This document shows, in pieces, positions 1 through 33,572 of a stretch of DNA of 64,000 nucleotides. Location of the stretch: NCBI GenBank assembly GCA_942490575.1, contig CALNYA010000069.1, positions 53,901 to 117,900 on the forward strand, read 5' to 3'. Positions within the stretch are counted from its first letter, which is position 1. Each line of letters starts with the position of its first letter. A program made the translations under genes and the position numbers. The DNA is from an uncultured Verrucomicrobiota bacterium. Its GTDB lineage: Bacteria; Verrucomicrobiota; Verrucomicrobiia; Limisphaerales; CAIMTB01. Below the pieces are notes generated by a model. It ran no database searches and had not been told where the DNA came from. It saw only the letters and a program-made list of their open reading frames with translations.

Positions 1-550
1 AATACTCTGCCAGCGTGTCGGACCACTCGACCAGCAGTCGTTCCGCCTCCTGTCGTTGGATGTACGTGGCCCGCGAACCCCCGGTGGGGAAGAAACTGAT
101 CCCGGCGACGCCACCGGCCACCGCGAGATTACCGGTGAGGCCGTCCGCCGCCACCATCTCGACCACCTCGTCAAAGGAGGTGAGAACTGCGCTGTGGACC
201 GAGCGACGCAGATTCCCCTCCACCCACTGCGTGCTCCGGTGTTCGGCAAGAGGCTGCTGCAGCGCAAACCGACGGCTCCACGGATCGAGGTTGCTTTCGA
301 TGGTGGTTCGGCTTTCTTCCATGCGGTCGGCGAGTTCCTCGTTGCTTTCGGCCAGGCGGGGGTCCGCGACCTCCTGCACGACGGTGACGATCACGGGTCC
401 GGCGTCGCGAAGCGTGAGATGAACGTGCTCGCGAACCGGGTCCTCGAAACAGCCGAAGAGGGGCAGACACAACATCAAAATGAGGGCGATCCTGCAGTCG
501 ATGCCGATATCGCATCGTCCTCGCGAGTCGCGGGCGCCCCGATTATCCAC
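1..550 (-). CDS. Putative lipoprotein, 3' end outside the window (hand-translated, not in the supplied ORF track)
   Basis: Minus-strand frame read by hand from GTG (complement of 548-550): VDNRGARDSRGRCDIGIDCRIALILMLCLPLFGC-FEDPVREHVHLTLRDAGPVIVTVVQEVADPRLAESNEELADRMEE... It has a hydrophobic stretch ending in a lipobox-like LFGC. The frame stays open to base 1. The + strand ORFs 15..422 and 56..691 look like antisense shadows. Confidence 0.35.
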   Translation of the reverse strand, partial: MDNRGARDSRGRCDIGIDCRIALILMLCLPLFGCFEDPVREHVHLTLRDAGPVIVTVVQEVADPRLAESNEELADRMEESRTTIESNLDPWSRRFALQQPLAEHRSTQWVEGNLRRSVHSAVLTSFDEVVEMVAADGLTGNLAVAGGVAGISFFPTGGSRATYIQRQEAERLLVEWSDTLAEY

Positions 551-782
551 GCAAACGGCCACGGGATGGGTAACCGTGAACCAGCGACCATACACCCGGC
601 AGCCGGGATCCGGCTGACAGCCCCGGAGGGGCGACAAGGCCGTCCTGGAGTGACGGCGTGTCCTCATGCGGGGCACTTGCGTCCCGCGTGAACCCCGGGG
701 CTGACGCGGAGTCTGTCGCCGATCGACTTGAACGATCGATGTTCGCGGAAGCAACCGATTAGAATGGACAAATGGTGAAAGC

Positions 783-1654
783 GTGACACTCATCCGCTCC
801 ATGCGCCCCGAACAGTGGCTCAAGAACGGTTTCGTGCTGGCGCCGATCGTGTTTTCAGGCCTCGTCGGCGACCCCCACGCCTGGCTCCGGAGCCTGCTCG
901 CATTCGCAGCCTTCTGTGCCGCCTCCTCGGCCACCTATCTCGTCAACGACGTCATCGATCGCGAGGCCGACCGGGCCCACCCCGAAAAATGCAGACGTCC
1001 GATCGCAGCCGGCGAGGTGTCGGTCGCGGCGGCTCTCTGGCTTTCGCGGCGTTCCTCGTGGCGGTGGCGATCGCCATCGCCCTCTGGCTCGGCGGGTGGT
1101 TCCCGGTCATCCTGATCTCCTACGTGGTCCTGGTTCTGCTGTACTCCGCCATTTTGAAACGGGCCGTGTTTCTCGACGTCCTGGTGGTGGCGGCTGGCTT
1201 CGTCCTCCGGGTCGTGGGTGGCGCCGTGGCCATCAACGTGCCGGTGTCGAGGTGGATTCTGGTGGTCACGTATCTTCTGGCCCTTTATCTCGCTCTCGGC
1301 AAGCGGCGAACCGAGCTCGCGTTGCTCGGCGAAGGTGCCGGCCACCACCGCGTGGTACTCGGCCACTACACGCTGCCGATGGTGGACAGCGCCATCAGCG
1401 TGGTGCTCGGCGCCACGGTTCTCGCCTACGCGCTCTACACGGTCGCACCCGACACGGTGGCCAAGGTGGGTTCGGAGGGGCTGCTGGCAACCGTCCCGAT
1501 CGTGCTCTACGGGCTCTTTCGCTACCTCTATCTGCTCCACAGCCACGATCTCGGCGGCAGCCCGACCAAAGCACTCCTGACCGATCGCCCGCTGCTCGTG
1601 TGCGTCGTGATCTGGCTTGTCGTGTCGGCTGTCGTGATCGGCGCGGGACGATGA
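783..1654 (+). CDS. UbiA-family prenyltransferase (decaprenyl-phosphate phosphoribosyltransferase-like), interrupted by one frameshift near 1030-1045
   Basis: ORF 783..1115 starts VTLIRSMRPEQWLKNGFVLAPIVFSG...YLVNDVIDREADRAHPEKCRRPIAAGEVS, the Asp-rich UbiA motif region. The protein continues in the frame of ORF 815..1654 (LAFAAFLVAVAIAIALWLGGWFPVILISYVV...YLALGKRRTE...), which is multi-pass membrane. Confidence 0.75.
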
Positions 1655-1660
1655 ACACAG

Positions 1661-1763
1661 TTTTGAGTTCTGAATTTTGAATTTTGAATTTCGGCCAGCC
1701 GATTCGAGACCTTCTGGGTGGTGGGATGGAATTCAAAACTCAACACTCAAAATTCAAAACTCA
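1661..1763. terminator. AT-rich imperfect palindrome with TGAATTT heptamer repeats between convergent ubiA-like and hemY genes; candidate bidirectional terminator
   Basis: The left arm is ttttgagttctgaattttgaattttgaatttc (1661-1692). The right arm is gaattcaaaactcaacactcaaaattcaaaactcag (1729-1763) and is its imperfect reverse complement. The element begins 7 nt after the ubiA stop (1652-1654) and overlaps the hemY stop (1754-1756). It is a sharp AT-rich island in high-G+C DNA. Confidence 0.4.
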
Positions 1764-3143
1764 GGCAGGCTCGAGGCGCTGCGCGATGCGTCGCGCAGCG
1801 CCTCGAGCCTGCGGATGCAATCGTTGACCGACACGCCGCGGTAGGGAGAGCCGGCGATTCGACGCCTGCGGCACCGACGGCGGCTTCGGCAGCCGCAACC
1901 CGGTCGAGGTGGCCCACCGTGTACTGCGAGATTCCGTGCTCCCAGCGCACGATCCACACCCGGTCGGGCTCGGGGTCGGCGCCGTAGACCTGCGCGAGAC
2001 CCGACCGGACCCGTGCCAGCAGGGCGTCGTCGTCGAGCGCCGCCGCCTCCGGCTCGCGGGCGCCGCCGACCATGGCGCGCAGAAGAAGAGTTCCCGCCGG
2101 TGCCTGGCCCGGGAAGATGTCGTGGCAGTAGAGCGTGCCGAGGAGGCCGACCGTTTCACCGCGCGGCACCAGGAAGCCGAAGCCCCGAACCGGCCGTCCA
2201 AAGGCATCGGCGTCGTCGTATCCGAGCATGACGACGGCGATCGGGGCGGTGGAGATCCCCGACAGCGGCGCAACCGCATCGGGCGCGAGGTCGGCCACCA
2301 GATCAGCGGTCGATCTCGCCGGCAGACACAGGAGCACGGCCTCGGTCGAGATTTCTCCGCCGTCGGTGGTCACCACGAATCCCCGGTCTTGCGCGACAGC
2401 TTCAGCGCCGAACTGTCGAGCATCAGCCGGTCGCCGAGGCGTTCGCTCAAACTCTGCGGGAGACGGACCATTCCGCCGTCAAAGGTGGTGAGCCGACCGC
2501 CGGGCCCGCCGGGCCGCCGCTCTTCTTCCCGGCCCGTTTCGCCTCGCGGATCTTGGCAAAAAGAGCTCGGGTCAATGACCCGTGTTCGGTCTCCATCGCA
2601 GCCATTTTCGGAAAGGTGGCGGCGAGCGAGAGCTGCCTCGAGTCGCCCGCAAACACCCCCGTCACCATGGCGTCGACCAGCACCTCGGCCGCCTGCGGTC
2701 CGATCCGCCGGCGCGCCGAAATCGAGCACGGTCTCGTCGTGGTCGGGGCGTTTTCGCGCAAAGGGCTCGCCGAGCAGCCGCAACCGGCCGGTGAGGGGAA
2801 GAATGTCCGACATCATGAAGGCGATCAGGGAGGTGGCCACCCGCCGCAACCGGCCGCCGCGGAGGATGAAACGATCGGCCGCGCTCTCGTCGGCCTGTAC
2901 CAGGGCGTCTTCGAGGCCGACGAGTGACGCGAGTTCGAGGGTGTCAGGTGCGTTGTCGAGGAAGCCCTGCGGCCCCTCTTCGAGGGTGGAGCCGGCGTCC
3001 ACCTTCGAGCGGATCTTGACGCCAGCGGCACTCGCCGCCTCGACGACGAGGACGTCATCGATGCCGTGATCCCGTTCGAGCCAGACGGCGGCGGCGAGCC
3101 CGGTGATGCCGCCGCCGATAATTGCGACTCGGGTTGTTCTCAT
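1754..3143 (-). pseudogene. hemY: Protoporphyrinogen oxidase (HemY-type FAD oxidase) with at least four frame changes
   Basis: The N-terminus MRTTRVAIIGGGITGLAAAVWLE is a FAD dinucleotide-binding motif (ATG = complement of 3141-3143). The reading frame moves between ORFs 2370..3788 (tail), 2447..2761, 2370..3788 again, 1747..2376 and 1754..1957. Shifts fall near 2705-2715, 2495-2510, 2380-2390 and 1855-1880. The C-terminus is ...SPYRGVSVNDCIRRLEALRD. The span is 1390 nt, not a multiple of 3. Confidence 0.8.
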
Positions 3144-3788
3144 TAATTCAAGAGGGCTGAAACCCCGGTGGACAAGATCGTCTCCGCACTTTTCTTCTGT
3201 GATCGGCTCACCACTTAACGGGTCACGTTTTTCACCACCATTGTCTGCCAGCTGGGGAATCTGCTTGCAGACTTTCCTTTGCACTCCCTGCAGTTCAATA
3301 AGCGGATGAGGCATACCTACGTTTTCAAACAACAGGTTGTTGACGCCAAATGGCCGTTTGTCGTCTTCATAAAACACGCGCATGTAAGTGTAAAGATACT
3401 CGGGACCACCCTTCAGCATTGTGTACATGGTGAGGTCTGGTGGTACTGACCCGAACCACTGCTTTGCATTCTCTACAGACAAAGCGTTTTCCATCAGAGA
3501 ACCAATCCGTACGGAAGGATCAAAAACCATGTGTTCCATCATCAGGTCTACCGGAATACCAAGGTCATCTGCGGTCCGCTGGTAACGCTGGTATTTCAGG
3601 GTGTGGCAACCCATGCAGTAATTGATGAAAGTCTTGGCACCACGCTGCAGCGATGCCTGGTCTCTTATGTCAGGTTGCATTTCATCCAACGGATAAGGTG
3701 TTTCACCACCCGCAGCAACTACATAACCAGGTAGCAGCAACAATACGGTCAACAAAACCTTCTGCAAATCGTTCAGTCCAGACTTCAT
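3144..3788 (-). CDS. petC: Cytochrome c1 of the bc1 complex, C-terminally truncated at the composition breakpoint
   Basis: This is the N-terminal 215 aa of ORF 2370..3788: a signal peptide (LLTVLLLLPGYVVAAG) and the haem-binding CMGCH motif. It overlaps the petB stop by 4 nt. The C-terminal membrane anchor expected for c1 is missing, and the sequence runs straight into the hemY ATG. Confidence 0.8.
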
Positions 3789-5047
3789 GGCATCGTCACC
3801 CTCAAAGGTACCGGCTTTGTCTTCTCAACGCTGGTGTACCAGGGCATCAGCAGGAAATAGCCGAAGTAGATGGCAGTACAGACCTGCGCAAGCAGTGTCC
3901 TTCCTGGTGTCGGATGCTGAACACCCAGGTAACCCAGGATAAAAAACGCCACAATGAACACAGCGAGGAACAACTTGCTGCCTAATCCTTTGTATCTGAT
4001 GGACTTAACCGGTGACTTGTCGAGCCATGGCAGAACTGCCGGCAGGACAATCGCACCAGCCATGACGACCAGCCCCCAGAATTTTGCATCAAGGCCAAAC
4101 AGCGGAAACGTTGCGGCTCGAAGCATCGAGTAGAAAGGTGTGTAGTACCAGACAGGTGCGATGAGATCCGGTGTCTTCAGGGGGTCAGCCGGTTCATAGT
4201 TCGGATGCTCAATCAGGTAGCCGCCACCATCAGGGAAATAGAACATGACGACACAAAAGAAGAACAGGAACGCAACAATCGCCGGCAAATCATGACCAAT
4301 AGTGTAATGGGGATGAAACGGGATGCCATCGAGAGGCTTGCCGTCTTCGTCGACAGTCTTTTTGATATCAACGCCATCCGGGTTGTTTGAGCCCACCTCA
4401 TGCAACGCCAGGATATGCAGGAAGACAAGTACAATCAGCACCAACGGAATCAGTACAACGTGCAGGGCAAAAAAGCGGTTCAGGGTTATTACGGAAATAT
4501 TGAAGTCACCACGAACCCAGGTCGCAAGCGCGTCACCAACGATAGGAATGGCACCGGCGAGAGAAACAATGACCTGGCCGGCCCACAAAGACATGTTGCC
4601 CCAGGGCAGCAGGTAACCGAAGAATCCATCCGCCATCAGTGCCACGTAAATCAGCATACCCAGAATCCAGATGAGCTCCCTTGGCTTCTGGTAAGAGCCA
4701 TAGGCAAGCCCGCGGAACATATGCAGGTAAACCACAAGGAAGAACGCCGATGCACCTGTGGAGTGCATATACCGAAGCATCCAGCCGTACTCGACGTCCC
4801 GCATGATGTATTCAACCGAGGCAAAGGCACCATCAGCCGTTGGTACGTAGCTCATCGTCAGCCAGATACCGGTCAGTAACTGATTGACCAGCACCACGAC
4901 CGACAGGACGCCAAAAAAGTACCAGAAATTGAAATTTTTTGGCGCGTAGTACTTGGAAAGATGTTTCTCGTAGGTTTCCGTAACCGGAAGCCTGGCATCC
5001 ATCCAATCCATAAAATTTTTGAATGACTGTTGTAACGCTGACATCAA
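3785..5047 (-). CDS. petB: Cytochrome b of ubiquinol-cytochrome c reductase
   Basis: A 420 aa polytopic membrane protein (…[14 protein letters not shown]…, …MSLWAGQVI…, …LPWLDKSPV…), sitting between the Rieske and c1 genes. Confidence 0.95.
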
Positions 5048-5643
5048 GCAGTCCCCTCGTCTTCTCCGATAATAATCACAGAGTCGCTTTCATAAGCATG
5101 TGGTGGCACTTCCAGATTTGACGGCGCAGGTACACCTGTGTAGACACGGCCAGCAAGATCAAACTTTGAACCATGACAGGGGCAGAAAAAGCCACCTATC
5201 CATTCAGGATCAAACTCCTCGGGTTCGATAACAGGGCGGAATTTTGGAGAGCAGGAGAGGTGTGTGCACAATCCAACCAGAACAAGAATCTCCGGCTTGT
5301 TCGATCGTGTTTCGTTTTTCGCGTAGTCGGGCTGTTGTGGCCTTTCTGATGCAGGGTCGGCCAGTCGCTCGTTTCTGGAGTTCAACCGGTCGAGCATTTC
5401 CTCGGAGCGCCTGATCACAAACACAGGTTTGTCACGCCAGGCTGGTATTGGCCCGAGCATTTCGCCAGGGGACAATTTACTGATATCTATCTTGATTGGC
5501 GCGCCTGCTGCCAACGCCTTGGCGCTCGGATTCCAGGAGCCGACAAAGGGTACGGCAACTCCCACTACTCCAGCAGCTCCAACTACAGACGTCGCACCTA
5601 TCAGGAAGTTGCGGCGCCCTGTGTTGACGCTATTCTCACTCAC
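5044..5643 (-). CDS. petA: Rieske iron-sulfur subunit of the bc1 complex
   Basis: It has a Tat-like N-terminus (RRNFLIGAT) and the Rieske 2Fe-2S boxes CTHLSCSP and CPCHGSKF. Confidence 0.95.
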
Positions 5644-5838
5644 TATGAAATCTCCTTACTATTACAACATCCAACCCCGGGTATCCCGGCCAGAAATAAC
5701 CGCGAATTCAGGGTGAGTAAGGCCCCAAAATTGGCCGAGCGGAGTTTACCACATTCCATCGAGAAAATGTTGGCGAGCCAGCGTAATATCTGGAGTTTTT
5801 CCAATTCGGGGAAGTTGAGATCCTGGCGGTAAAACCGG

Positions 5839-6225
5839 TTACCGCTTGGAAAACTGGGGCTTTTTCCGTGCCTTGCGCAGACCGACCTTTTTACGTTCCA
5901 CGGTTCTCGCATCACGGGTTACAAAACCGGCGCTTCGAAGCGCCGGGCGCAGGGTTTCATCATATTCAATCAAAGCGCGAGTGATACCGTGGCGAATCGC
6001 GCCCGCCTGGCCGAAACCGCCGCCGCCGCAGACGGTCACGTTAAAGTCAAATTTGCCATTGACGTCAGCGACTTCCAATGGCTGACGGACGATCATTCGC
6101 GCGGTTTCACGCCCGAAATATTCATCAAGAGTACGGTCATTTACCCGGATACTGCCATCACCTGCCGTCATAAAGACGCGTGCCTTGGCTGATTTTCTTC
6201 TTCCGGTTCCGTAATACTGGGTCAT
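5839..6225 (-). CDS. rpsI: 30S ribosomal protein S9
   Basis: 128 aa with [17 protein letters not shown]...[18 protein letters not shown]...[17 protein letters not shown]. Confidence 0.97.
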
Positions 6226-6271
6226 TTGCTGTTACCTGAGCGCTTGTGTGGGCTTGTGTGGGTCTGGTCGA

Positions 6272-6700
6272 TTAGATATCGAGGGGTTTGGGTTGCTGGG
6301 CTGAATGTGGATGTTCACTACCAGCGTATACCTTGAGCTTCGCCAGCATCGACTGACTGAGCTTGTTCTTCGGCATCATGCCTTTCACGGCTTTCTCAAT
6401 GATCTGTTCAGGGGACTTCTGAATCAGCTTATCGAAGCTGATGGACTTGATACCGCCTGGATAGCCTGTGTGATGGTAATACATCTTGTCGGTAGTCTTG
6501 TTGCCTGTAACAACGACCTTTTCAGCATTAACAACAACAATATAGTCACCGGTATCCACGTGTGGCGTGAACTCCGGCTTGTGCTTACCGCGCAGTCGAA
6601 TGGCGATTTCCGTGCTCAGGCGACCCAGGGTCTTGTCTGTAGCATCCACAACATACCAACTGTGTGTGGCGGTTTCTTTCTTGGCGCTAACTGTCTTCAT
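6272..6700 (-). CDS. rplM: 50S ribosomal protein L13
   Basis: 142 aa with [61 protein letters not shown]... Confidence 0.97.
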
Positions 6701-6928
6701 GCTGAATATTTAACCGTGATGTAGTGTTCAAATCCGCTTTTGACCCGATAAATACTATGGCCCGAAGCAGGATTTTGGGAGCGCGCATCTTAACCAAGCC
6801 AACACGCAGTTGCAAGGGGAAACACCTGCCAGCGCGGACTTAACTAATACCTTGATTTTCATGGTTTATTTTGTTGCTTCAGGCCGCCTCAGCAGGCCCG
6901 GAAAGACCCAAAAAGCCTGCCATGGATA

Positions 6929-8023
6929 TCAGGGCTTGTGCTCCCTGGCGAGATACTCCTTGGACTGCATTTCCTGCAGCCGGCTTTCAGTCCTCTGGAA
7001 TTCAAAGGTAAGCCGATTGCCGTGATACAGGTCCAGGATGTGGGTTTCGGCTGAAATGATCAATTTCACGTTCCTGTCATAGAACTCGTCTACCAGGCTG
7101 ATGAATCGCCGCGCCTGGTCTTCCTTTTTCTCATCCATCCGGGGGACATTACCAACCAGCACAGTCTGGAAGAGTTTTGCCAGTTCAATGTAGTCGTTCT
7201 GGCTGCGCGGGCCGTCACACAGGGCAGAAAAATCAAACCAGGCTACACCATCCCCACAGCGTCGGGTGGCGATATTCCGCCCCTCGATAGGCAGAATGAT
7301 ATCAGGCTTGCCCTCATCAGGTGAAAGGCTGCGAAACGCTGAGACAAGCCCGCTTTCCGCGGTGTCATCAAGGGGAAAGTGATAGATTTCGGCAGACTCA
7401 AGCGCCCGCAGGCGATAATCGACCCCACCGTCCAGATTATGAACACGGGTGTAGGTGTTTAACAGCTCAATGGCAGGGAGGAACTTGCGGCGCTGGAGCC
7501 CGTTTTCATACAAGTGATCCGGCGCTACATTCGACGTCGCAACGAGGGTGACACCCAATCGAAACAGTTCATCCAGCAATCCCGCCAGCAACATGGCATC
7601 GGTAATGTCACTGACAAAAAACTCATCGAAACAGATCACCTTCGCCTCTGCTGCGAAACTGGCGGCTACCTTCCTTAGGGGATTGGGTTCTCCCTGGAGA
7701 TCCCTCAACTGCCGATGGACTTCACGCATGAACCGATGAAAGTGCAGGCGTTTCTTCTGAGTCGTCTCAAGTTCCTCATAGAACAAATCCATGAGGAACG
7801 TTTTCCCTCTGCCGACACCTCCCCAGAAGTAGAGTCCTTTGATGGTCCGGGTCTGTGCTGAACGACCAAACAGCGCGAAAATACCCGCGGGAGGTGCAGC
7901 CGGGACGACGGAGAGCTCGCGATGTAGTTCCTGCAGCATCTGCAATGCCTCCAGCTGGGCAGCATCTTCGTGGTAGTCGCCTCGAGTGACTTCCTGTCGA
8001 TAGCGCGCTAGAGGTCCCGACAT
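6929..8023 (-). CDS. zapE: AFG1-family ATPase / cell division factor ZapE
   Basis: 364 aa with a Walker A motif GGVGRGKTFLMD and a Walker B-like ICFDEFFVSD. It sits upstream of rplM-rpsI, as in many Gammaproteobacteria. Confidence 0.85.
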   Translation of the reverse strand: MSGPLARYRQEVTRGDYHEDAAQLEALQMLQELHRELSVVPAAPPAGIFALFGRSAQTRTIKGLYFWGGVGRGKTFLMDLFYEELETTQKKRLHFHRFMREVHRQLRDLQGEPNPLRKVAASFAAEAKVICFDEFFVSDITDAMLLAGLLDELFRLGVTLVATSNVAPDHLYENGLQRRKFLPAIELLNTYTRVHNLDGGVDYRLRALESAEIYHFPLDDTAESGLVSAFRSLSPDEGKPDIILPIEGRNIATRRCGDGVAWFDFSALCDGPRSQNDYIELAKLFQTVLVGNVPRMDEKKEDQARRFISLVDEFYDRNVKLIISAETHILDLYHGNRLTFEFQRTESRLQEMQSKEYLAREHKP

Positions 8024-8033
8024 AAGTCCTGAA

Positions 8034-9344
8034 TCAGCCTTTTAGCCTGATACGCGCCGACTCGGCGTGAGCATCCAGGCTTTCCGCGTCTGCCAGTATT
8101 GCTGCGGCCCGGCTTAGCTCTATCGCGCCCTCTCTGGAACACTGGACCACCGAAGTCCGGGTCTGGAAGTCATAGACGCCAAGCGGTGAGGCGAAACGGG
8201 CGCTGCCACTTGTCGGTAGCACGTGGCTGGGTCCGGCGGTGTAGTCACCAACAACTTCTGCTGTATCTACACCGACAAAAATCGCGCCCGCATGCTGCAC
8301 CTTCGGCAGCCAGGCTTCAGGATCCGTCAGTGCCAGCTGCAGGTGCTCCGGCGCGATGCGATTTGAAACCGAAAACGCTTCATCCAGATCACTGACTTTT
8401 ATCAGGGCACCGCGACTGGAGATCGCCTCTGAGATGATCGACACCCTGGTCTGCTGTTTCAGCATGACTGGCAGCAGCTCATTGATGGCATCGAGCAATG
8501 CGGCGCTGGGAGAAATCACAATGGCCTGCGCCATCTCATCATGTTCAGCCTGGGCAAACATGTCCTGGACCACCCAGGCCGGGTCAGCGGCGTCATCTGC
8601 AACGATGACAACTTCCGAGGGACCGGCAATCATATCTATACCGACTTTTCCAAACACCATCTCTTTCGCGGTCGCAACAAAGATATTGCCCGGACCAACA
8701 ATCTTGTCGACGCGTGGCACAGTGTCTGTACCGAACGCCATGGCGCCCACTGCCTGCGCACCGCCCAGCGCAAAGACGCGATCAATGCCACACAGATGTG
8801 CCGCAGCAAGCAAGGTCGGGTTAAGTTCACCCCCCGGCGTCGGGACGCACAACACAATTTCCCTGACCCCCGCCACACTCGCGGGGATTGCCGTCATGAT
8901 AACTGTAGAGGGATAAGAGGCTTTGCCGCCGGGGGCATAAATACCTACCCGGTTCATCGCCCTGATGTTCTGGCCCAGCCTGTTGCCGAGGCTATCGGTA
9001 TAGTGCCAACCGCCAGCGGCACCTGTCGCTGCCATTTGTTTTTCGTGGTATTCCCTGACACGACTGGCAGACGCCTGCAGCGCCTCGCGCACCAGCGGAT
9101 CGATAGCCTCAAAGGCATCCTGCAGTTGCTGCGAGCCAATCACCAGTTCCTGCATGGTTGTTACTGACTGACCGTCGAATCGATTGGTCAGCGCTACCAA
9201 TGCTTCGTCGCCTCTCGTGCGAACATCCTCAAGTATCGCCGCCACACTGGCCCTGACTTCAACCTGGCCGGCTTCCGGGTAATCAAGAAGGGACCGCAGC
9301 GCTTCATTGAAAGCTGCTTGACTGCTATCGAGACGGGTAATCAC
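8034..9344 (-). CDS. hisD: Histidinol dehydrogenase
   Basis: 436 aa with ...QAEHDEMAQAI..., ...APEHLQL..., ...GDYTAGPSHVLPTSGSARF... Confidence 0.95.
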   Translation of the reverse strand: MITRLDSSQAAFNEALRSLLDYPEAGQVEVRASVAAILEDVRTRGDEALVALTNRFDGQSVTTMQELVIGSQQLQDAFEAIDPLVREALQASASRVREYHEKQMAATGAAGGWHYTDSLGNRLGQNIRAMNRVGIYAPGGKASYPSTVIMTAIPASVAGVREIVLCVPTPGGELNPTLLAAAHLCGIDRVFALGGAQAVGAMAFGTDTVPRVDKIVGPGNIFVATAKEMVFGKVGIDMIAGPSEVVIVADDAADPAWVVQDMFAQAEHDEMAQAIVISPSAALLDAINELLPVMLKQQTRVSIISEAISSRGALIKVSDLDEAFSVSNRIAPEHLQLALTDPEAWLPKVQHAGAIFVGVDTAEVVGDYTAGPSHVLPTSGSARFASPLGVYDFQTRTSVVQCSREGAIELSRAAAILADAESLDAHAESARIRLKG

Positions 9345-9967
9345 GTGGCCAGTTCCAGCGCATCAATGATTGACTTGATGGGTTCATACTTGGTCTTGAA
9401 GGACGATTCGTTGACGATAAGTCGGGTGCTGATATTGGTAATCAGTTCCATCGCTACAAGCCCGTTGGCTTTGAGCGTATTGCCCGTCTCAACGATGTCA
9501 ACAATCCGGTGCGCCAGCCCCGTAACAGGTGCCAGTTCCATTGCGCCGTAGAGTTTAATAATGTCTACCTGGATACCCCTGGCGGCATAATAGCGTTTGG
9601 CAGTATTGGTAATCTTGGTCGCTATTCTCAGCCGGGATGGCAAAGGTGGTTCGTCCTTTAGACCCGCCACCATAATGCGACACTGACCAAGGCCCAGATC
9701 AAGCGGTTCATAGAATCCGGTGCCCGTATGCTCAAGCAGCACATCTTTGCCCGACATACCGAGGTCTGCAATGCCATGTTCAACGTAGGTAGCCACATCC
9801 ATGCCACGCAGCACCATAATTTGCACGTCGGCGCGATTTGTTTCAAACACGAGCTTGCGTGAGGTCTGCGGGTCATCCCTGGGCTCAATGCCTATCCGAG
9901 CGAGAAGCGCGAGCTCATCGGCCAGAACTCGACCTTTAGTCAGGGCAAATACCAGGTTCCGTGACAT
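9341..9967 (-). CDS. hisG: ATP phosphoribosyltransferase, short form
   Basis: 208 aa with LVFALTKGRVLAD..., ...DLGMSGKDVLLE..., ...VDIVETGNTLKANGL... It overlaps hisD by 4 nt. Confidence 0.93.
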   Translation of the reverse strand: MSRNLVFALTKGRVLADELALLARIGIEPRDDPQTSRKLVFETNRADVQIMVLRGMDVATYVEHGIADLGMSGKDVLLEHTGTGFYEPLDLGLGQCRIMVAGLKDEPPLPSRLRIATKITNTAKRYYAARGIQVDIIKLYGAMELAPVTGLAHRIVDIVETGNTLKANGLVAMELITNISTRLIVNESSFKTKYEPIKSIIDALELAT

Positions 9968-9970
9968 TGA

Positions 9971-11245
<1,275 letters not shown>

Positions 11246-11503
11246 CTACCGGTTTGCCTCATCATAGGTCTGCGTGACCATGGTCACGGCATGAATCTCG
11301 CCGGTCTTGATCCGATCGTCGAGCAACGCATAAATCTTCTGCTGACGCTTGACCCTGTTCAGGCCAGCGAAGGCATCGGATACAATTTTGACGCTAAGTT
11401 TGTTGCCTTCTGCTGCGAGTTCGAGCTCACATTGCGGCAAACTTTCACGCAATTGCGCTTCTATGGCGGATACATCCATTGGCAGAACTCGATTGGGTGA
11501 CAA
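11246..11503 (-). CDS. ibaG: BolA-family protein (IbaG/YrbA type)
   Basis: 85 aa with ...VKIVSDAFAGLNRVKRQQKIYALL...GEIHAVTMVT. It lies between mlaB and murA, as in the enterobacterial mla-ibaG-murA arrangement. Confidence 0.75.
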   Translation of the reverse strand: MSPNRVLPMDVSAIEAQLRESLPQCELELAAEGNKLSVKIVSDAFAGLNRVKRQQKIYALLDDRIKTGEIHAVTMVTQTYDEANR

Positions 11504-11538
11504 AGGCGCGACATATTAGCACGCAAGTCGGGGTTTTC

Positions 11539-11832
11539 TTAAGCGGTGAGGCCCAGGAGTTCATCCAGCTCGGCCAGACTGGCCATTTTAACCAACCGGT
11601 CACTCGCCCCGACAAACTGCACCCGGCCACCGCCGGTTCTTGCCCGCCGGGCTATGTGTACAAGCAGGGCCAGGACAGCAGAGCCCTCAAACTCGAGTTC
11701 GCTCAGGTCAAGCGAAAGCGAGCCATCCTCCGGAAAAGATTTCTCAACTTCTCGTTTGTAGGACATCAGGGAAACCAGGTCCAGCTTCCCTGTCAGTTTC
11801 ACATCGTTGCCATCAAGCCTGATTGTCGACAT
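11539..11832 (-). CDS. mlaB: STAS-domain protein, MlaB-like
   Basis: 97 aa with an anti-sigma-antagonist-like STAS pattern (LDLSELEFEGSAVLALLV...). It is immediately downstream of and overlapping the mlaC fragment. Confidence 0.6.
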   Translation of the reverse strand: MSTIRLDGNDVKLTGKLDLVSLMSYKREVEKSFPEDGSLSLDLSELEFEGSAVLALLVHIARRARTGGGRVQFVGASDRLVKMASLAELDELLGLTA

Positions 11833-12196
11833 CTACTGACCAGTTCTCGATGACCTTATCGATGTTCTTCTTATATTTTTGCATGTAGGCGTTGAATTGA
11901 GACCTGAATTGCAACCCGATATTAATGCCGTTGATAATGACATTCCGTAGCATCCACCGCCCGTCAATCAGTTCCAACTGGTACTGTACCGGATAGATCG
12001 TGCCTGATTTAGTATGAATTTCCAGGTCAATGGTAGCCCTGTCATCCGTTTGTTCCGGCGTTGATGGAGGGACCACAACAACCTTCTCATTGTCAAACTC
12101 CACCAGTGCACTTGCATAGGTACGAACCAGCGCATTCTGGAAAGTCGTGACAAATTTTGCCTTCTGGACATCGGTGGCATCCCGGTAGTGCTTGGG
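11813..12196 (-). CDS. mlaC: MlaC-like periplasmic phospholipid-binding protein, N-terminally truncated at the poly-G joint
   Basis: The frame reads ...KHYRDATDVQKAKFVTTFQNALVRTYASALVEFDNEKVVVVPP...DGRWMLRNVIINGINIGLQFRSQF... It aligns by eye with the E. coli MlaC segment [30 protein letters not shown] onward. Roughly the first 85-90 residues are absent. Confidence 0.7.
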   Translation of the reverse strand, partial: PKHYRDATDVQKAKFVTTFQNALVRTYASALVEFDNEKVVVVPPSTPEQTDDRATIDLEIHTKSGTIYPVQYQLELIDGRWMLRNVIINGINIGLQFRSQFNAYMQKYKKNIDKVIENWSVDVDNQA

Positions 12197-12230
12197 AAAA
12201 GAGGGGGGGAGGGGGGGGGGGGGAGGAGGG
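12195..12230. other. Poly-G / G-rich tract forming the joint between the mlaC fragment and an unrelated coding fragment
   Basis: The sequence is gggaaaagagggggggagggggggggggggaggaggg. Coding homology stops on both sides of it. Confidence 0.8.
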
Positions 12231-14640
12231 CGAGAATGAAATCTACTATGCGGATGAAGGTCTTAAACTGGACCAGATCGCTGCTGGCGATGAGTTCAAC
12301 TATCTGACTGAGAGCGGCTACAACTGGATTACTGTTGTTGATGCAGTTCCCTCCAGGGAGCTGGCCGCAGCTGATTTTGCAGCCATCAGCCGTTCTGATG
12401 AGACTGGCTCCAACTTTGTGGCCTTGACTCCCCAGGATCTTTTGCAGGTTAATGTGATTGATTTTGAGGATGATCCCTACAGCCGTTATATGAAGGTCAG
12501 GTGGGAGAATCCCATTGATCGCAGTTCACAGAGAATCTCATTAAAATCATATGACCAGAATGGTTGGCAGAAGTTCAGTGACGATAATGAGTATATCAGC
12601 GGTAACAGTGAATATATTTTCTGGAACCTCGATAATATCTGGGGTGGTATCGACTCCATCCGCTTTGAACTGCAGTGCAGCGATGCATTCAATTCCAATC
12701 AGCGCTACGTAAATGTCATCGAGGCCAGTCAGGCTGATCAGCCGGTTAGCCTCAACCTGGTCAACGGCCCCTGGCAGCGTTCAGCTCCGGTCAATGAGTG
12801 GGAGCGCGCCCGCCAGATGAGCCTCAGCTTCAGGGTCAGCGGCAACACCATCTCCGAGATTCATTATGAGAGCCTGCCGTCTTATAATATTAAGGGAGAC
12901 TGTCCCGAGGTGGTAAGCATCGCGGCCGGCGGAACATTTGAGTTTCCGGTAGCCAGACTCGGTGTGATCAAGGGGCGTTTTACGGCAGGTGATAGTTGTG
13001 AAGGTTCTTTACGGGTGAATAGCGGGCTTTCACTATCATGGAAATCTGAACCCTTTGATTCGGCTGCTGTGGTTGATGAAGATATCACCAGTGGGCAGTG
13101 GCAGGGTCTGGAAACATCGACCTATGTAAAGTTTGAAGTTGTGGATGGTCAGCTGGTGGCGGTCAGGTATTCTCTAAATGGCTCAGCTGAAGTTGTGCTT
13201 GGAGATGTTGAGGTTGACGAGGACGGTAACTTTGTGGCCGGTAACGGTCAGGTAACCATCAGCGGACGTTTCATTGACGGCAGTGTTTGTAACGGTAGCA
13301 TCGAATCCGATGGAGAGACTGTTACCTGGCAGAGTGCCCCGGCTACAATGCTGACAGAGATTAAGACAATCTTGAACAGTATCAATCTGGCCTATGATGG
13401 CGGCTATCCTCAGTCTGATACGGATAAGGATCTGTTGCGCGGTATGGTAAACGATGCCTACCTGAACAGCATGATGGATAAGACTGGCGTTGTTTCGGAT
13501 GAGGGCGAATGGTTTAAGAGTAATCTTGATCCGATTTTTGTCAAGATTTATCCTGAGATGGGTATCCCGGTCGCTGATATTAAACTGAGATTGAAATCTT
13601 TGCACCGAGCCATGGGACCGGTCTACCGCAATGAGATCTATCTGGGAAATGAGCTGGAAAATGAGCACGGCCTCTATCCTGCCGGCGTTTGGGCGATTGT
13701 GGAGTTTGGGGTTGGCGATCATCAAGGTGAGTTTCTGACCAGTTTTGTTAAACCGAGCAAGATCCTTGATAAGTGGGAACTCTACGGCAACCGCTCTCCC
13801 ATGGGCGGTTTTGGCAGCCCGTTCGGAAAGGTTAATCGTATAGAAAATCTTACCACTGGCAGTGTGAACTATGAGTCTGCTCTTGCCTATATGCTGGGCT
13901 CCGGCGGCAGCGGGTTTGCTGACTTTATGGCTTATAATCCTGCCTTCAAGGGTGATTTTAAAATGTGGCCCATGCTGAGTGACGGCTGGCTGAACTTCAC
14001 CATGCAGGATTGGAGCTACACGACCTCGCCCTGGATGCCCAATGACACTGAGTTCTTTGATTATGAAGGACTCGATATTGAACTGCTCAGAGAGAATCGG
14101 GAAATTGTCTACTCGGGTATGATCAATAACAGACTGCATACCTGGACCGAGCTGCTGGCAGATGAAAAACTGCCCATTAACCGAGATGCAGCAGCCATGC
14201 TCGATTGTGGTGATATCGTCTCGCCGGTAGATGTTGCCGGGTTTGTTGTGCATGCGGACGGTTCGGTAAATGTTGAATGGCAGGAACCGGTTAATGGCTC
14301 TATGGGAGCTGTGGTTGTCAAAGCGACTACTGTTAATGGTGTTCAATATGAGGGATCGCTCTGGAATCCGGCTGCGCCTGTAATTGAAGATTATCAGGGT
14401 TGGACCAGTGCTGTGATACCTTTGGCTTTTCAGGGTGAGGCTATTGATCCGGCAGCGCAGATCGTTTCCTTTGAGATTGAACTCCTGCCCATGGTTGACG
14501 GAAATAAAAACTGGTTTAGCAGTCGCTATATATTTAGTTCGGGCACCTGGCTGACCGGCAGCGTAATTGCCGATGGACCGGTGGGTAACCTGGTTACTCT
14601 GGTGGATGCCGAAGGCGCAGTGGCTGTCTCATTCGCGATC
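12231..14640 (+). CDS. Internal fragment of a large unknown (probably extracellular) protein, with no start or stop inside the fragment
   Basis: This is the central part of ORF 12157..14778. It has a coding-like composition and an acidic/aromatic-rich sequence. Two related roughly 100-aa modules end in GRFTAGDSCEGSLRVNSGLSLSWKSEP and GRFIDGSVCNGSIESDGETVTWQSAP. The ORF is bounded only by the poly-G joint and the G+C jump near 14640. Confidence 0.5.
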
Positions 14641-15136
14641 CCCAGGTCGGATGAATCCCGGCGCCACGGAAGCTGGACGGCGAGAAGGCGTCGGCCTGAC
14701 GGATCAGACCGAACGCGATCTGGAATGTCGTGTCCGGCGACTCGGTGGCGATGTCGTCGAGGACCAAGCCGCACCTGAAGCGGAACGAATCGGCGCGGGT
14801 CAGGACCGTGGGGAGCGGGAGGTGGAAGAATGCGTTGGGACGACGTGAATCCCAGGTGACCGCCAGCCGAGCCCGGGTGGCGTCCCAGGCGAAGTGGCTC
14901 GCGTCGCCCTCGATTCGCCAACCACGGGACGAGGGGTCGGAGGAGAAGTCCTCGCGCCAGAGCACCCGCTCACCCGGCACGGATCCGGACTCGGCGGATC
15001 CGGCGACGGAGACCGGGATCCGTGCCAAGTCCAGGGCGAGGAGGATCGCGATCGCGCGGAGCAGCGCGGCGAAGGGACCCCGAACGGCGCCCGCCTGGAT
15101 ACCGGCTTGGGTGCCGGTGGACCTTCGGATTCTCAC
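14641..15136 (-). CDS. Hypothetical secreted protein, 3' end lost at the composition breakpoint
   Basis: This is the tail of ORF 14594..16180. The GTG at 15136 overlaps the upstream stop (GTGA). The sequence has a signal-like GPFAALLRAIAILLALDLA, then VLWREDFSSDPSSRGWRIEGDASHFAWDATRARLAVTWDSRRPNAFFHLPLP... The coherent sequence ends about 14630-14655. Confidence 0.45.
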
Positions 15137-16002
15137 GGGTTGGTTTCCTGGCTCGGCTTCCGGGCGAGCCTGCGACGGGCGACTCCGACGAGGACGCCGA
15201 GCAGCGTGAGAGCTTTCGCGGAAGGTTCCGGGACGGCGCTGAATCCGTCGATCTCGGCGCGGTCCTCCAGGACGTCGATGCGCACAAACTGGATCGAATC
15301 GAGGTGGGCTTGCGAGCCGTCGGGATTGCGGGCCCAGCCGATGTCGAATCCCGTGCCGCCGCCGGAACCGTCGTAGAGCGCCCGGATGCCGGCGAGATCG
15401 AGACCGTTGAAGTCGGCTTCGCCGAGGGTCGGTGGCACCGGGCGGAAGAAGTCCCCGGATCCGTCCGTTGGGAAGTACCCGTCGACCGTTGGAGCCAGCG
15501 AGAGGTCGAGGGGAAAGAACTGGGTGCCGTCGGCGCTCACCCCGACCCGGGTGGGGCCGGTCGAGTCGCCGAAGAGCGAGCCGTCGGTGATCCCACCGCC
15601 GGAGAAGTCCCCATTGGTGATGAGGAACGCGGCGGCCCCGAAGACGAGGAAATCGAGGCCGTGGGGATTCCCGGCGAGATTCAGGACGGGGTACTGGAAG
15701 CGGACGGTGAGGGAGCCTGATTCGCCGATCGAGACGATCTGGTCGGATTGCCACGGGGCGCTGAAGGGATCGACCGGGCCGCCGAATTCGCCGGGGATAA
15801 CCCGGGACGGTTGGCCGAGGGCGGACGAGGGATCCTGGTAGCCGTTGGCGGCTCCGGTGCCGGGGGAGTACCCGAGGATCTCGGCGGCGTGGTTGGCGGG
15901 CGTCTGAGCCGGGGTGGCGAGGGACAGGACGAGGGAAGTGGCGACGGCGAAGCCGGCCACCGACGGGACGGGGCGGATGGTGTTCATCGATCTGGTCTGC
16001 AT
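15133..16002 (-). CDS. PEP-CTERM-anchored secreted protein
   Basis: This is the inner part of ORF 15133..16350. The likely start is MQTRSMNTIRPVPSVAGFAVATSLVLSLATPAQT (signal peptide; alternative ATG at 15987). The C-terminus VPEPSAKALTLLGVLVGVARRRLARK gives the PEP motif, a TM helix and a basic cluster. Confidence 0.75.
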   Translation of the reverse strand: MQTRSMNTIRPVPSVAGFAVATSLVLSLATPAQTPANHAAEILGYSPGTGAANGYQDPSSALGQPSRVIPGEFGGPVDPFSAPWQSDQIVSIGESGSLTVRFQYPVLNLAGNPHGLDFLVFGAAAFLITNGDFSGGGITDGSLFGDSTGPTRVGVSADGTQFFPLDLSLAPTVDGYFPTDGSGDFFRPVPPTLGEADFNGLDLAGIRALYDGSGGGTGFDIGWARNPDGSQAHLDSIQFVRIDVLEDRAEIDGFSAVPEPSAKALTLLGVLVGVARRRLARKPSQETNP

Positions 16003-16472
16003 CACGGACACCGCGCGCCCAGGCGCGGAGTTTGGACTGCGAGACCAGCGCGGAATCGAGGGCGCCTGGGAAGGCGACCGGGACCCGGAATCGGGAGCTC
16101 CGAGGAACTCCGTGAAGACGACCGGCCGACAAGCCGGTGCCACTGGCCTCATCCTTCTCTTGGGCGGAGAAGTGTCCCAACCGACCGAACGGATGGAGTT
16201 GGGACGGACGAGCATGGATGGACCGGTCTCCTGACTCCGGGCTGCGAACCTCGCCCCCGCCTTCCCAGCGTCGCCGCTAGTGGCTTGTGGGGGTCTGTCA
16301 CCCGATACAGTGGCGCTACCGTCCCCGATTCCCACGGGGTTCCCGAGCATCTATCCATGTGGACCGGGGAAAGCCCCGGGACTTCAAAGAACGCGGTCTA
16401 CGGGTAGCGGGTCGCGCCGGGTACGCGCAAGCCATTTCCCGGAAACGCCGGATCGATCGACGGGCGGATTCC

Positions 16473-17012
16473 TCAGTAGGCGATCAGGGAACGGACCGCC
16501 TTCCCGGGCAGGCGCGCGCGGCCGTCGAGAAAACCCAGTTCGATCACGAAGGCGAGTTCGAGGACCTTGCCGCCCAGACGTTCGATGAGCTGGACGGTGG
16601 CCGCCGCGGTGCCGCCGGTGGCGAGGACGTCGTCGACGAGCAACACCCGCTCACCCGGTTGGATGGCGTCGACGTGCATGGCCAGGGTGTTGGTTCCGTA
16701 CTCGAGGCTGTAGCTCTCCTCGATGGTCTGGTAGGGCAGCTTCCCCTTCTTTCGGACGGGAACGACGCCCGTGCCGAGTCGGAGGGCGACCGCCGAGGCG
16801 AACAGGAAACCCCGCGCGTCGATACCCGCGACCACGTCGATTTCGCCGGGCTTCCAGGATCCCACCAGAAGCTGGATGCAGGACGAGAAGAGGCCGGGAT
16901 CCGCGAGCAGGGGTGTGATGTCCTTGAACTGGATGCCGGGCTTGGGGAAATCCGGGACATTCCGGATGGAGGCCTGGAGGTCGGTGGCGGAGTGCGAAGA
17001 CTGGGGAGGCAT
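16473..17012 (-). CDS. apt: Adenine phosphoribosyltransferase
   Basis: 179 aa with ...IRNVPDFPKPGIQFKDITPLL..., ...VAGIDARGF..., ...VLLVDDVLATGGTA... Confidence 0.95.
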   Translation of the reverse strand: MPPQSSHSATDLQASIRNVPDFPKPGIQFKDITPLLADPGLFSSCIQLLVGSWKPGEIDVVAGIDARGFLFASAVALRLGTGVVPVRKKGKLPYQTIEESYSLEYGTNTLAMHVDAIQPGERVLLVDDVLATGGTAAATVQLIERLGGKVLELAFVIELGFLDGRARLPGKAVRSLIAY

Positions 17013-17211
17013 GGGGGGGGATGGGTGGTGACGACGGGGAAGGGTAACCGCCGGAACCGACCGGGGTCACGCCCCTGTTGACGCCGACGGTGACGACTCG
17101 CTTCCAACGGAGCGTTCCGTGGTGGTCGCCTTCGGAGTGGAGATGGGGCTTGAACGGAGGCGGGTCGTGGCGACAGCTTGGGCGGCCATGGCCGCGCCCT
17201 TGGAGCCCGAC

Positions 17212-17490
17212 ATGAATCCGACGGGTCCAGTCAGCCGACCGGAGTCGTGTTCCCTCGCGCAGGTGAGCGCCGGGGAGTGTGTGCGGGTCCTGGAATTGAA
17301 CGCGCCTCCGGAAGTGGCGATACGCCTTCGGGAACTCGGCTTCTGCGAACAGCAGCGGATCCGGTTGCTGAGCAAGCACACCCACGTGATCTGTCAGGTC
17401 TGCAATGTGCGCCTGGGGATCAGCAAGGACCTGGCGGGCATGATCGTGGTGGAGCCGGCGGGGCCGCGGGGAAGGGAGACGAGATCATGA
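17212..17490 (+). CDS. feoA: FeoA-family protein (first of two)
   Basis: This is the tail of ORF 17119..17490: CSLAQVSAGECVRVLELNAPPEVAIRLRELGFCEQQRIRLLSK...NVRLGISKDLAGMIVVE. The start is uncertain (ATG 17212 chosen). Confidence 0.75.
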   Translation: MNPTGPVSRPESCSLAQVSAGECVRVLELNAPPEVAIRLRELGFCEQQRIRLLSKHTHVICQVCNVRLGISKDLAGMIVVEPAGPRGRETRS

Positions 17491-17726
17491 GCGGGGAGAA
17501 TCTTGTGTTGAGCGCCATGGCGGCGGGAACGCGCGGCCGGGTGGCGGAGATCCGGTTGCCCGGGCCGGACAAGTCCCGGTTGATGGAGATGGGGCTGCTG
17601 GTGGGGACGCCTGTGGAACTCGTTCGATTCGCGCCGTTGGGCGATCCCGTGGAAATCAAAGTGCGCGGCTACCACCTCACCCTTCGCAAGCACGAGGCGG
17701 ATCTGATCCTCGTCCGGCCCGCGTGA
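17487..17726 (+). CDS. feoA: FeoA-family protein (second)
   Basis: MSGENLVLSAMAAGTRGRVAEIRLPGPDKSRLMEMGLLVGTPVELVRFAPLGDPVEIKVRGYHLTLRKHEADLILV. It shares an ATGA overlap with the first feoA stop. Confidence 0.85.
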   Translation: MSGENLVLSAMAAGTRGRVAEIRLPGPDKSRLMEMGLLVGTPVELVRFAPLGDPVEIKVRGYHLTLRKHEADLILVRPA

Positions 17727-17811
17727 TGGTGGATCGGGTGCGCAAACCGCCGACAACCAAGCGCAAGCCGGCGCAAGCCCCGGGCGTCGGAACGTCCCAG
17801 ATTGGAGGGGA

Positions 17812-20052: not shown

Positions 20053-20065
20053 CGTGACGACGCGG

Positions 20066-20174
20066 AAAGGGGTCGGTCAATGGTATTGGAGTATTTCGCG
20101 GTAGGGCATCGGCGGAAATCTGCCTGCCCAACCCGATATGCCAATACGCCGATACCATTGACCGACCCCTTTGC
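20066..20174. repeat. MITE-like / REP-like hairpin element, copy 1
   Basis: Sequence aaaggggtcggtcaatggtattggagtatttcgcggtagggca...tgcccaacccgatatgccaatacgccgataccattgaccgacccctttg. The termini are inverted repeats (GGGGTCGGTCAATGGTATTG / CAATACCATTGACCGACCCC). A second copy lies at 22929-23027 in the same orientation. Confidence 0.8.
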
Positions 20175-20193
20175 GGCGACCCCTTTGCGGCCC

Positions 20194-20285
20194 CCAACTG
20201 GCTTACATGACCGGGTTGGCATGGATCCTGGCGTTCGTGACCTTCCAGGGCCTACCAGGGCGGCCTTTGGCTGGGTTTCAGCTGA
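20194..20285 (+). repeat. Degenerate second copy of the last ~80 nt of feoB
   Basis: ccaactggcttacatgaccgggTtggcatggatcctggcgttcgtgacc... matches 19971-20052 with a few substitutions and an internal ~10-nt insertion (ttccagggcc). Without the insertion it reads TYQGGLWLGFS-stop, against TYQGGRWLGFS-stop in feoB. Confidence 0.85.
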
Positions 20286-20298
20286 CCTCGGCGCCCGA

Positions 20299-22920: not shown

Positions 22921-22928
22921 CCGGGGGT

Positions 22929-23027
22929 TAGGGGTCAGTCAATGGTATTGGAGTATTTGGCGGTAGGGCATCGGCGAGAATCCGCGTGCCCAACCCGATA
23001 CTTCAATACCATTGACCGACCCCTTTG
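22929..23027. repeat. MITE-like / REP-like hairpin element, copy 2
   Basis: Sequence taggggtcagtcaatggtattggagtatttggcggtagggcatcggcgagaatccgcgtgcccaacccgatacttcaataccattgaccgacccctttg. The arms of about 38-41 nt are mutually complementary and surround a roughly 16-nt loop. Confidence 0.8.
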
Positions 23028-23084
23028 CCGCAATCACCGGAATGGGGCTTCGCCCGTGTTGGGGAAGAGGCTAGGATCGTTGTC

Positions 23085-23333
23085 ATGGAACGGGTGGTCA
23101 GGCGATTTGGGTCCCACGCGGAAGCGGAAGCGGCGGATGCGGAATACTACAGGAACTTGACCCCCGAGGAGCGGCTTGACCTGTTGCTCCAGATGGTTAG
23201 TCGGGAGACCTCGAATGAACCTGAGCAAAGACTTGAGCGAGTTTATCGGATTGCTCCGCTCCACGGGGGTGAACTACCTGATCGTCGGGGGGCACGCGGT
23301 GGCGTTTCATGGTCACCCGAGGTTCACCGGTGA
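23085..23333 (+). CDS. Small hypothetical protein, possible partner of the downstream nucleotidyltransferase-fold protein
   Basis: The inner start of ORF 23025..23333 reads MERVVRRFGSHAEAEAADAEYYRNLTPEERLDLLLQMV... Its 3' end overlaps the next gene by more than 100 nt, so the true stop or frame is uncertain. Confidence 0.4.
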   Translation: MERVVRRFGSHAEAEAADAEYYRNLTPEERLDLLLQMVSRETSNEPEQRLERVYRIAPLHGGELPDRRGARGGVSWSPEVHR

Positions 23334-25132: not shown

Positions 25133-25172
25133 GGCGGGTGGACGGTGGAGGTGGGCGTCGTGGGGCCGCCCC

Positions 25173-28376: not shown

Positions 28377-28538
28377 GAGAATTTGGGGGTGGACCGGGGC
28401 TTTCGGGATGGTTAGCCGCCTGACGAATCTCCGCAAGGGCGCGCAGGAGGCCCGCATTGCGGGAACAGGGCTTGGCATCAGCCTCCCTGGCGTGTAAGTC
28501 GTGGCGCATGGAGGCGAGCATTAGCCAGGCCGGGGCGT

Positions 28539-29076: not shown

Positions 29077-29148
29077 GGCGCGCGCGCTCAGGTGGGACGG
29101 GACTCCCGGAATCGGGCCGGTGCGGGCCGGTGGTTTCTTTTGGCGCGG

Positions 29149-33549: not shown

Positions 33550-33572
33550 GGGACCTCGCGGGGCGGGCGAAT

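Follow-up and report, generated by a model that had tools for sequence, protein, structure and literature searches.

Metagenomic contigs that combine DNA of several genomes ("interspecies translocations") are recognized by an abrupt change of composition or taxon, by genes cut at the break and by native synteny elsewhere. In benchmarks, every assembler built low-coverage species into chimeric contigs most often, and metaFlye produced interspecies translocations (PMC7881036). The window described here, a stretch of 64,000 nucleotides, has the same three marks and probably likewise involves an organism of low coverage, as reported for all assembler types (PMC7881036). It differs from typical chimeric contigs in having at least three breaks within 11.5 kb (A/B, B/C, and C/D, see below) and at least three source organisms.

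Two further kinds of described systems resemble parts of this locus. As in genomic islands, a block of deviating G+C content lies between stretches of higher-G+C DNA; unlike genomic islands, the window has no matches to mobility genes among the ORFs profiled with Pfam, no tRNA target and no flanking repeats, and its two flanks belong to different organisms. Natural fusions of respiratory and heme-pathway proteins are similar to it in that a single ORF carries cytochrome c1 and the N-terminal FAD-binding domain of HemY, but here both domains are incomplete, and the architecture is found in no other sequence among the matches listed.

Judging from the sequence and its relatives, we consider this c1::HemY "gene" to be very probably a product of assembly, in which pieces of different genomes were joined end to end in the deposited contig. 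The first-pass annotation had read the locus as a chimeric join rather than biology, a reading upheld by the truncated c1, the lost hemY operon, the different phyla of the two sides, the further joins and the uneven sequence quality. The window has the following segments and joins.

Segment A, 1..3143: high G+C, Acidobacteriota (Thermoanaerobaculales-like), indel-rich, collinear with the relative L001
A/B join, 3144..3147: blunt, ambiguous by 4 nt at most, no common repeat, taken from blastn alignment end points
Segment B, 3144..12196, minus strand: gammaproteobacterial housekeeping block, both ends inside genes
G-rich run at the B/C join, 12197..12228: low-complexity
Segment C, 12229..14630 (end approximate), plus strand: about 50% G+C, piece of an orphan ORF
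C/D join, 14630..14660: position known to about 30 nt only
Segment D, 14661..64000 (start about 14631-14661): 66% G+C, Verrucomicrobiota-like (PVC group), long intact ORFs

The closest relatives of segment B are MAGs of Gammaproteobacteria/Pseudomonadales, those of segment A are Thermoanaerobaculales/Acidobacteria-type contigs, and those of segment D are Verrucomicrobiota; the mosaic contains at least three source organisms and probably a fourth. Genes are truncated on both sides at the B/C and C/D joins. At the A/B join the native neighbors of each side are missing, the c1 gene being without sspAB and hemY without its Peptidase_M20 operon partners.

The A/B join and the hybrid reading frame

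The features on the two sides of the A/B join are as follows.

Hybrid c1::HemY ORF, 2370..3788, minus strand: 472 aa, starting with c1 residues 1-215, followed by the first 144 or so residues of HemY and by hemY sequence read out of frame
Truncated petC (cytochrome c1), 3144..3788, minus strand: 215 of about 279 codons, heme motif CMGCH present
hemY (protoporphyrinogen oxidase), 1754..3143, minus strand: broken by five single-base indels, N-terminus intact
UbiA-family prenyltransferase gene, 783..1654, plus strand: 2-base indel near 1038

In blastn comparisons, the similarity to L002, a gammaproteobacterial relative, extends down to window position 3147, and that to the hemY relative L001 runs from 3144 down to 1 (85.7% DNA identity to L001:10000-13108), which places the join at 3144-3147. 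The minus strand reads CAC CGG GGT TTC AGC CCT CTT GAA TTA / ATG AGA ACA ACC CGA GTC GCA ATT ATC GGC GGC GGC at this point, the slash marking the break. The ATG, which had been assigned to the complement of 3141-3143, is confirmed by the sequence, and it is the true hemY start, since the N-termini of the HemY homologs agree with it (MK.TRVAI(I/V)GGGITGLAAA).

A switch of composition had been noted exactly at this start codon, and the G+C content does fall there from about 0.69 to 0.50, with the fitted point 26 nt away from 3143. In particular, a two-segment G+C likelihood fit over 2000-4500 puts the change at 3117 (0.694 versus 0.500, gain 48 nats), and 300-nt windows have a G+C of 0.66-0.69 to the left of the join and 0.48-0.51 to the right. 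The 26-nt offset is in agreement with the AT-rich composition of the first 27 nt (nine codons) of hemY. That the two sides differ in origin, as was also proposed, follows from best matches in different phyla and from the tetranucleotide correlation between segments A and B (r = 0.48).

The earlier observation that the ORF 2370..3788 runs in frame through both genes holds: its 472-aa translation over the join, ...VHRGFSPLEL/MRTTRVAIIGGGITGLAAA..., is stop-free. Pfam recognizes Cytochrom_C1 at residues 43-157 and NAD_binding_8/Amino_oxidase/DAO from residue 219 on. Both domains are nevertheless incomplete, c1 being without its C-terminal 64 residues and hemY going out of frame after about 144 codons. 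The ORF forms a one-member protein cluster (P0246), and none of 240 homologs among the matches listed (120 of c1 and 120 of HemY) has both domains. The c1 part begins with a hydrophobic, signal-like N-terminal leader. Cytochrome c1 faces the periplasm; in HemY the extreme N-terminus lies in the cytoplasm, where it binds FAD. A functional c1-HemY fusion is ruled out by the incomplete c1, the frameshifted hemY, the conflicting topology and the lack of recurrence among the homologs listed.

The 36-nt sequence across the A/B junction has no match in two DNA collections (one of genomes, one of metagenome contigs), neither of which contains the source contig. Its absence would suit a mosaic that arose when the 64-kb window was cut, for example from concatenated contigs of a bin, and that does not exist in public records. 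Blunt joins with genes cut on either side, which is what contig ends would produce, and a G-run where a fragment ends, again typical of contig ends, would suit it as well. We give this reading practically no weight, because the 472-aa ORF and an 873-aa ORF across the other two joins are both public NCBI-derived gene calls on a contig of 200,589 bp, from which proteins of segments B and D are also reported. As both join-crossing ORFs are in the public protein collection, the joins are part of the sequence as deposited. The submitter may have concatenated pieces without spacers before deposition, which would be a sub-case of chimeric assembly.

Gene fragments and synteny in segments A and B

The c1 fragment is cut right after the invariant RGFSPLEL. 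The first-pass annotation had described it as lacking the C-terminal anchor; compared with all close homologs, its last 64 residues, including this membrane anchor, are indeed absent. Homologous c1 proteins (about 80% identity, 269-287 aa) continue after RGFSPLEL with VEGTGSLTPEEYDQ...FLAFFFVFTWLLGREYTKEFH, also given as VEGTGSLTPEEYDQVIYDLANFLYYTVDPSRL...FLAFFFVFTWLLGREYTKEFH, and in place of this C-terminus the window has MRTTRVAIIGGG. The closest c1 proteins among the matches listed are about 80% identical and come from uncultured Gammaproteobacteria/Pseudomonadales. The fragment scores 29.6 bits against the Pfam profile PF02167 (cut-off 22.8), with the CxxCH site present as CMGCH and the anchor absent. 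The gene from which this fragment derives is a genuine member of the cytochrome c1 family.

Segment B contains an mlaC fragment, mlaB, bolA/ibaG, murA, hisG, hisD, zapE, rplM, rpsI, petA, petB, and the petC fragment; these assignments, all of housekeeping genes, follow from collinearity with the Pfam-annotated L002. The order of genes on this 117.8-kb contig is mlaE, mlaC, STAS, bolA, murA, hisG, hisD, AFG1/zapE, rplM, rpsI, petA, petB, petC, sspA, sspB. Read from 12196 down to 3144, segment B is the same series, with most gene lengths identical and sspAB, the native continuation after c1 in L002, absent. The similarity to L002 in blastn and tblastx ends at 3147 and at about 12193. All internal genes are intact, and at the far end mlaC has lost about 78 N-terminal codons, matching positions 80-164 of the 166 in the MlaC Pfam profile. 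A second boundary had been placed at 12196, in agreement with the MlaC homology, which stops at about 12193-12196, and with the G-rich run that starts there.

The intact foreign genes, the in-frame join and the position of the AT-richer block (3144 to about 14630) between high-G+C stretches of similar overall G+C are what one might expect of a very recent horizontal transfer, in which a gammaproteobacterial piece and a second foreign fragment were inserted upstream of hemY by illegitimate recombination, leaving a true in-frame fusion. We regard such a transfer as very unlikely: the high-G+C flanks come from different organisms and are not neighbors in the relatives, which leaves no one genome as the recipient; the transferred DNA would consist of core housekeeping genes (rplM, rpsI, murA, hisGD, and the bc1 complex) that are cut at both ends; B and C are joined by a junk run of 13 G; and the recipient-side genes, otherwise conserved at 89-95% amino-acid identity, carry six indels. 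The joins have no direct or inverted repeats and no target duplications, only short matches at chance level. No tRNA genes occur in the 64-kb window, and the window ORFs profiled with Pfam include no match to integrase or transposase families. If the joins were real, which we consider most improbable, a bacterium or a population variant would carry a fresh cross-phylum patchwork including a complete gammaproteobacterial block of ribosomal-protein, bc1, murA, and his genes, and the in-frame c1::HemY would be a by-product of illegitimate recombination before any amelioration.

On the other side of the A/B join, the native context of hemY is known from three relatives (L001, L083, and L084), in the order purH / SBP_bac_5, permease, permease, Peptidase_M20, hemY / UbiA. 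In all three the stop codon of the Peptidase_M20 gene overlaps the hemY ATG by 4 nt (ATGA), and UbiA converges downstream. The window retains the arrangement of hemY and UbiA, the latter with 90-95% identity in tblastn and placed and oriented as it is in the hemY relatives; from 3144-3147 onward the native upstream context is gone, and alignment with the relatives detected no remnant of the Peptidase_M20 gene upstream of hemY in the window. The absence of intergenic DNA and of a stop between the two genes had been listed among the signs of chimerism. The absence itself is seen, but on the hemY side it is native, since the ATG overlaps the upstream Peptidase_M20 stop in the relatives.

The HemY homologs that are named come from Thermoanaerobaculales/Acidobacteria MAGs. 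After correction of its reading frame, which was repaired by hand for the comparison, HemY shares 89% identity with homologs of 460-462 aa among the matches listed, in alignments that cover 98% of the protein. The N-terminal GxGxxG region of this PF01593 protein is present as GGGITG; the reading frame downstream is broken by five indels, which relative to L001 lie at 2716, 2499, 2388, 1857, and 1812. The Pfam Amino_oxidase match of the hemY region is found in two separate ORFs, and the Pfam UbiA match is split between two overlapping ORFs. Tetranucleotide correlations of segment A with non-homologous DNA of L001, L083, and L084 are 0.95-0.96.

Sequence quality changes at the join as well. Compared with L001, the coding DNA of segment A, some 2.3 kb, contains six indels that break the frame (five single-base ones in hemY and one 2-base indel in UbiA), whereas the internal genes of segment B have no frame break; at the rate of A, about 20 indels would be expected in B. 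Such a step is what one would predict if the two pieces had very different read support. The repaired HemY has no internal stops and keeps every column that is invariant in the homologs. As the amino-acid sequence is otherwise conserved (89-95%), the indels of segment A look like errors of the reads or the consensus rather than decay of the genes. Several of them shorten short runs (GGG to GG, AAA to AA), and shortening of short homopolymer runs is a typical read error.

Five frame-breaking indels in hemY and one in UbiA could also mean that the contig is otherwise correct and that segment A has truly decayed into pseudogenes. This seems very unlikely, since decay would also substitute conserved sites, whereas internal stops are absent after frame correction and invariant columns are kept; moreover, two adjacent unrelated genes are hit at an equal rate, and several indels shorten short runs as read errors typically do. 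In any case decay would leave the join unexplained.

The joins of segments C and D

Two features cross or adjoin the remaining joins.

Second hybrid ORF, 12157..14778, plus strand: 873 aa, running from antisense mlaC through the G-run and segment C into antisense segment D
First gene of segment D, truncated, 14594..15136, minus strand: the first 135-150 or so residues of a protein of about 330 aa, followed by 13 antisense-C codons to the stop

The run at the B/C join, AGGGGGGGAGGGGGGGGGGGGGAGGAGGGCGAG, includes 13 consecutive G; no other homopolymer in the window exceeds 8 bases. The G-rich run suggests two-color Illumina chemistry, whose poly-G read tails create false joins or contig ends. 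The B/C join, a G-rich run with a 13-G homopolymer, resembles artefacts of poly-G tails; unlike these, the A/B join has no G-run, and the indel-rich segment A is unlike Illumina-only assemblies. The run was also considered as a garbled sequencing adapter, but the resemblance by eye is unconvincing.

Segment C comprises 2.4 kb with one open frame that has neither its own start nor its own stop. Among 5.8 billion proteins its sole match is the gene call of the source itself, and no Pfam or NCBIfam family matches it. Its tetranucleotide correlation with segment D is 0.04. The 873-aa ORF that includes it is identical to the NCBI protein P0241.

The first gene of segment D has 307 homologs, typically of 310-350 aa, in which the match is confined to residues 20-150 or so; with one of them, P0261, it shares 61% identity over residues 36-135 of 338. 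On the D side, homology ends at query residues 196-207 of window:14594-15250(-), and the change point of G+C at the C/D join was found at 14539. FeoB and FeoA encoded in D have their best matches in Verrucomicrobiota MAGs (59-71% identity, compared with 46-50% for acidobacterial matches), and D also encodes a PSCyt1/PSCyt2/PSD1 protein, whose domains are typical of the PVC group. The assignment of D to a phylum, as Verrucomicrobiota-like, depends mainly on one locus (feoAB) and on PVC-typical domains. Relatives with FeoB-related loci, at 70% identity or less, are too distant to reveal the native left neighbors of D and have only feoA-feoB in common with it. ORFs of 1115-1600 aa occur in D, the longest being 1600 aa, and the tetranucleotide signature is uniform across the segment (r 0.91-0.97).

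Segments A and D are both rich in G+C. A single genome around one insert was considered; it is ruled out by the signature test and by their differing phylum affinities. The tetranucleotide correlation between A and D is 0.891, which falls below all values obtained for 200 random 3143-nt pieces of D against the rest of D (0.960 +/- 0.012, minimum 0.919). The native neighbors of A were not found in D. As A and D come from different organisms, the window is a mosaic rather than one DNA with a foreign insert.

Consequences for databases and the route of assembly

With the pieces joined by assembly, the public 200,589-bp (200.6-kb) NCBI contig contains cross-phylum chimeric joins, and protein collections contain its hybrid products as singletons, namely the 472-aa c1::HemY and the 873-aa orphan. 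Any genome that includes this contig would contain ribosomal and respiratory genes of gammaproteobacterial origin, and wrong core genes of this kind can mislead taxonomy, estimates of completeness and contamination, screens for horizontal gene transfer, and domain-architecture searches. Neither a fusion protein nor a transfer event should be inferred from the c1::HemY ORF. The contig is to be split at 3144-3147, 12197-12228, and about 14630-14660, and both hybrid proteins are to be disregarded. The c1::HemY fusion does not represent real biology; its value is that of a warning of database contamination.

In the proposed chimeric assembly, the A/B join would have linked the first bases of an acidobacterial hemY to an internal part of a cytochrome c1 gene from a gammaproteobacterium. 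Because the join is in frame and right at the ATG, gene callers read a single 472-aa ORF, and no fusion protein is expected to exist. One point against this reading is where the break lies: a random break would land within 4 nt of a start codon with a chance of about 0.4% per fragment end, or a few percent for all six ends of the window together, and nothing beyond chance was found to account for the coincidence.

By the likeliest route, a single chimeric long read or a few of them, or else an incorrect bridge made during hybrid assembly or scaffolding, would have attached fragments of about 3 kb or more, 9 kb, and 2.4 kb to a contig of verrucomicrobial origin. Each fragment would then have been polished to a differing degree by whatever reads mapped to it, and such differential polishing would account for a low-coverage, indel-rich hemY piece beside a clean gammaproteobacterial one. 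A misjoin in a de Bruijn graph runs through a common repeat or k-mer, whereas the joins observed here are blunt, with at most 4 nt in common, which points to chimeric reads, bridging or scaffolding. The candidate routes are a chimeric long read, bridging in a hybrid assembly, a long-read assembly polished with short reads, unspaced scaffolding, and amplification chimeras. The indels hint at long reads and the G-run at two-color short reads, thus no single simple pipeline covers both. Finally, the contigs of the relatives, with names of the type contig_NNNNN, also have split genes, which suggests long-read assemblies of similar habitats.

Second artificial join and the hybrid ORF across it

The G-rich junk run AGGGGGGGAGGGGGGGGGGGGGAGGAGGGCGAG (12197-12228), which includes a 13-G homopolymer, is placed exactly at the end of the gammaproteobacterial block, inside the mlaC gene, and marks a second artificial join in the window. 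The adjoining orphan segment (12229-14630) has a G+C content of approximately 50%. Two coding features are concerned:

12229-14630, plus strand: the orphan segment, about 800 aa as a fragment of a large ORF, without a start or stop of its own
12157-14778, plus strand: second hybrid ORF, 873 aa, spanning two joins

The latter has been deposited as a protein (P0241, in the public protein collection) from an NCBI contig of 200,589 bp. Among 5.8 billion proteins, the sole match of the orphan protein was its own entry, and searches with Pfam and NCBIfam profiles produced no match.

When a collection of 15 billion proteins is clustered at 90% identity, the ribosomal proteins L13 and S9 of the gammaproteobacterial block (5839-6700, minus strand) each stand alone in their cluster. 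The donor organism of this block is otherwise unsampled at the 90% identity level.

Sequence quality of the acidobacterial segment and of related contigs

Five single-base indels in hemY and one 2-base indel in UbiA were identified at 783-3143. Apart from these indels, the products of both genes are 89-95% identical to their relatives, and the indels are probably uncorrected sequencing errors in a low-coverage piece. The assemblies of two related public contigs, L001 (carrying the acidobacterial hemY relative) and L002 (the gammaproteobacterial relative), probably contain indel errors as well. In these contigs Peptidase_M20, MlaE, LppC, and RsmH genes are broken into two or three ORFs, at the following sites:

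L001, 8792-10004
L002, 10-787
L002, 13748-15441
L002, 17237-18628

The convergent UbiA and hemY genes are separated by an AT-rich, imperfect inverted repeat with TTTTGAA/TTCAAAA units (1655-1765), one arm of which was found again at an unrelated intergenic site of L001 (2818-2855; 89% over 38 nt). It may be an intergenic or terminator-like element that occurs repeatedly and is specific to the lineage.

Genes of the Verrucomicrobiota-like segment

The first gene of this segment is truncated:

14594-15136, minus strand: truncated gene with homologs P0255-P0403 in the public protein collection

Its family comprises 307 representatives, usually 310-350 aa in length, and a Pfam search with three members gave no match. 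Further along, very large ORFs of 566, 1566, 1600, 1227, and 639 aa lie in a row (41059-59000, minus strand). This run is a non-ribosomal peptide synthetase cluster, with two of the five ORFs profiled: the 566-aa ORF matched adenylation/PP-binding models and the 1566-aa ORF matched non-ribosomal peptide synthetase models. Finally, the DPP IV/prolyl-oligopeptidase S9 protein (20302-22938, minus strand) gives an additional Pfam match to the VHL beta domain (PF01847, residues 178-224, E = 2e-9), an unusual domain for a bacterial peptidase.
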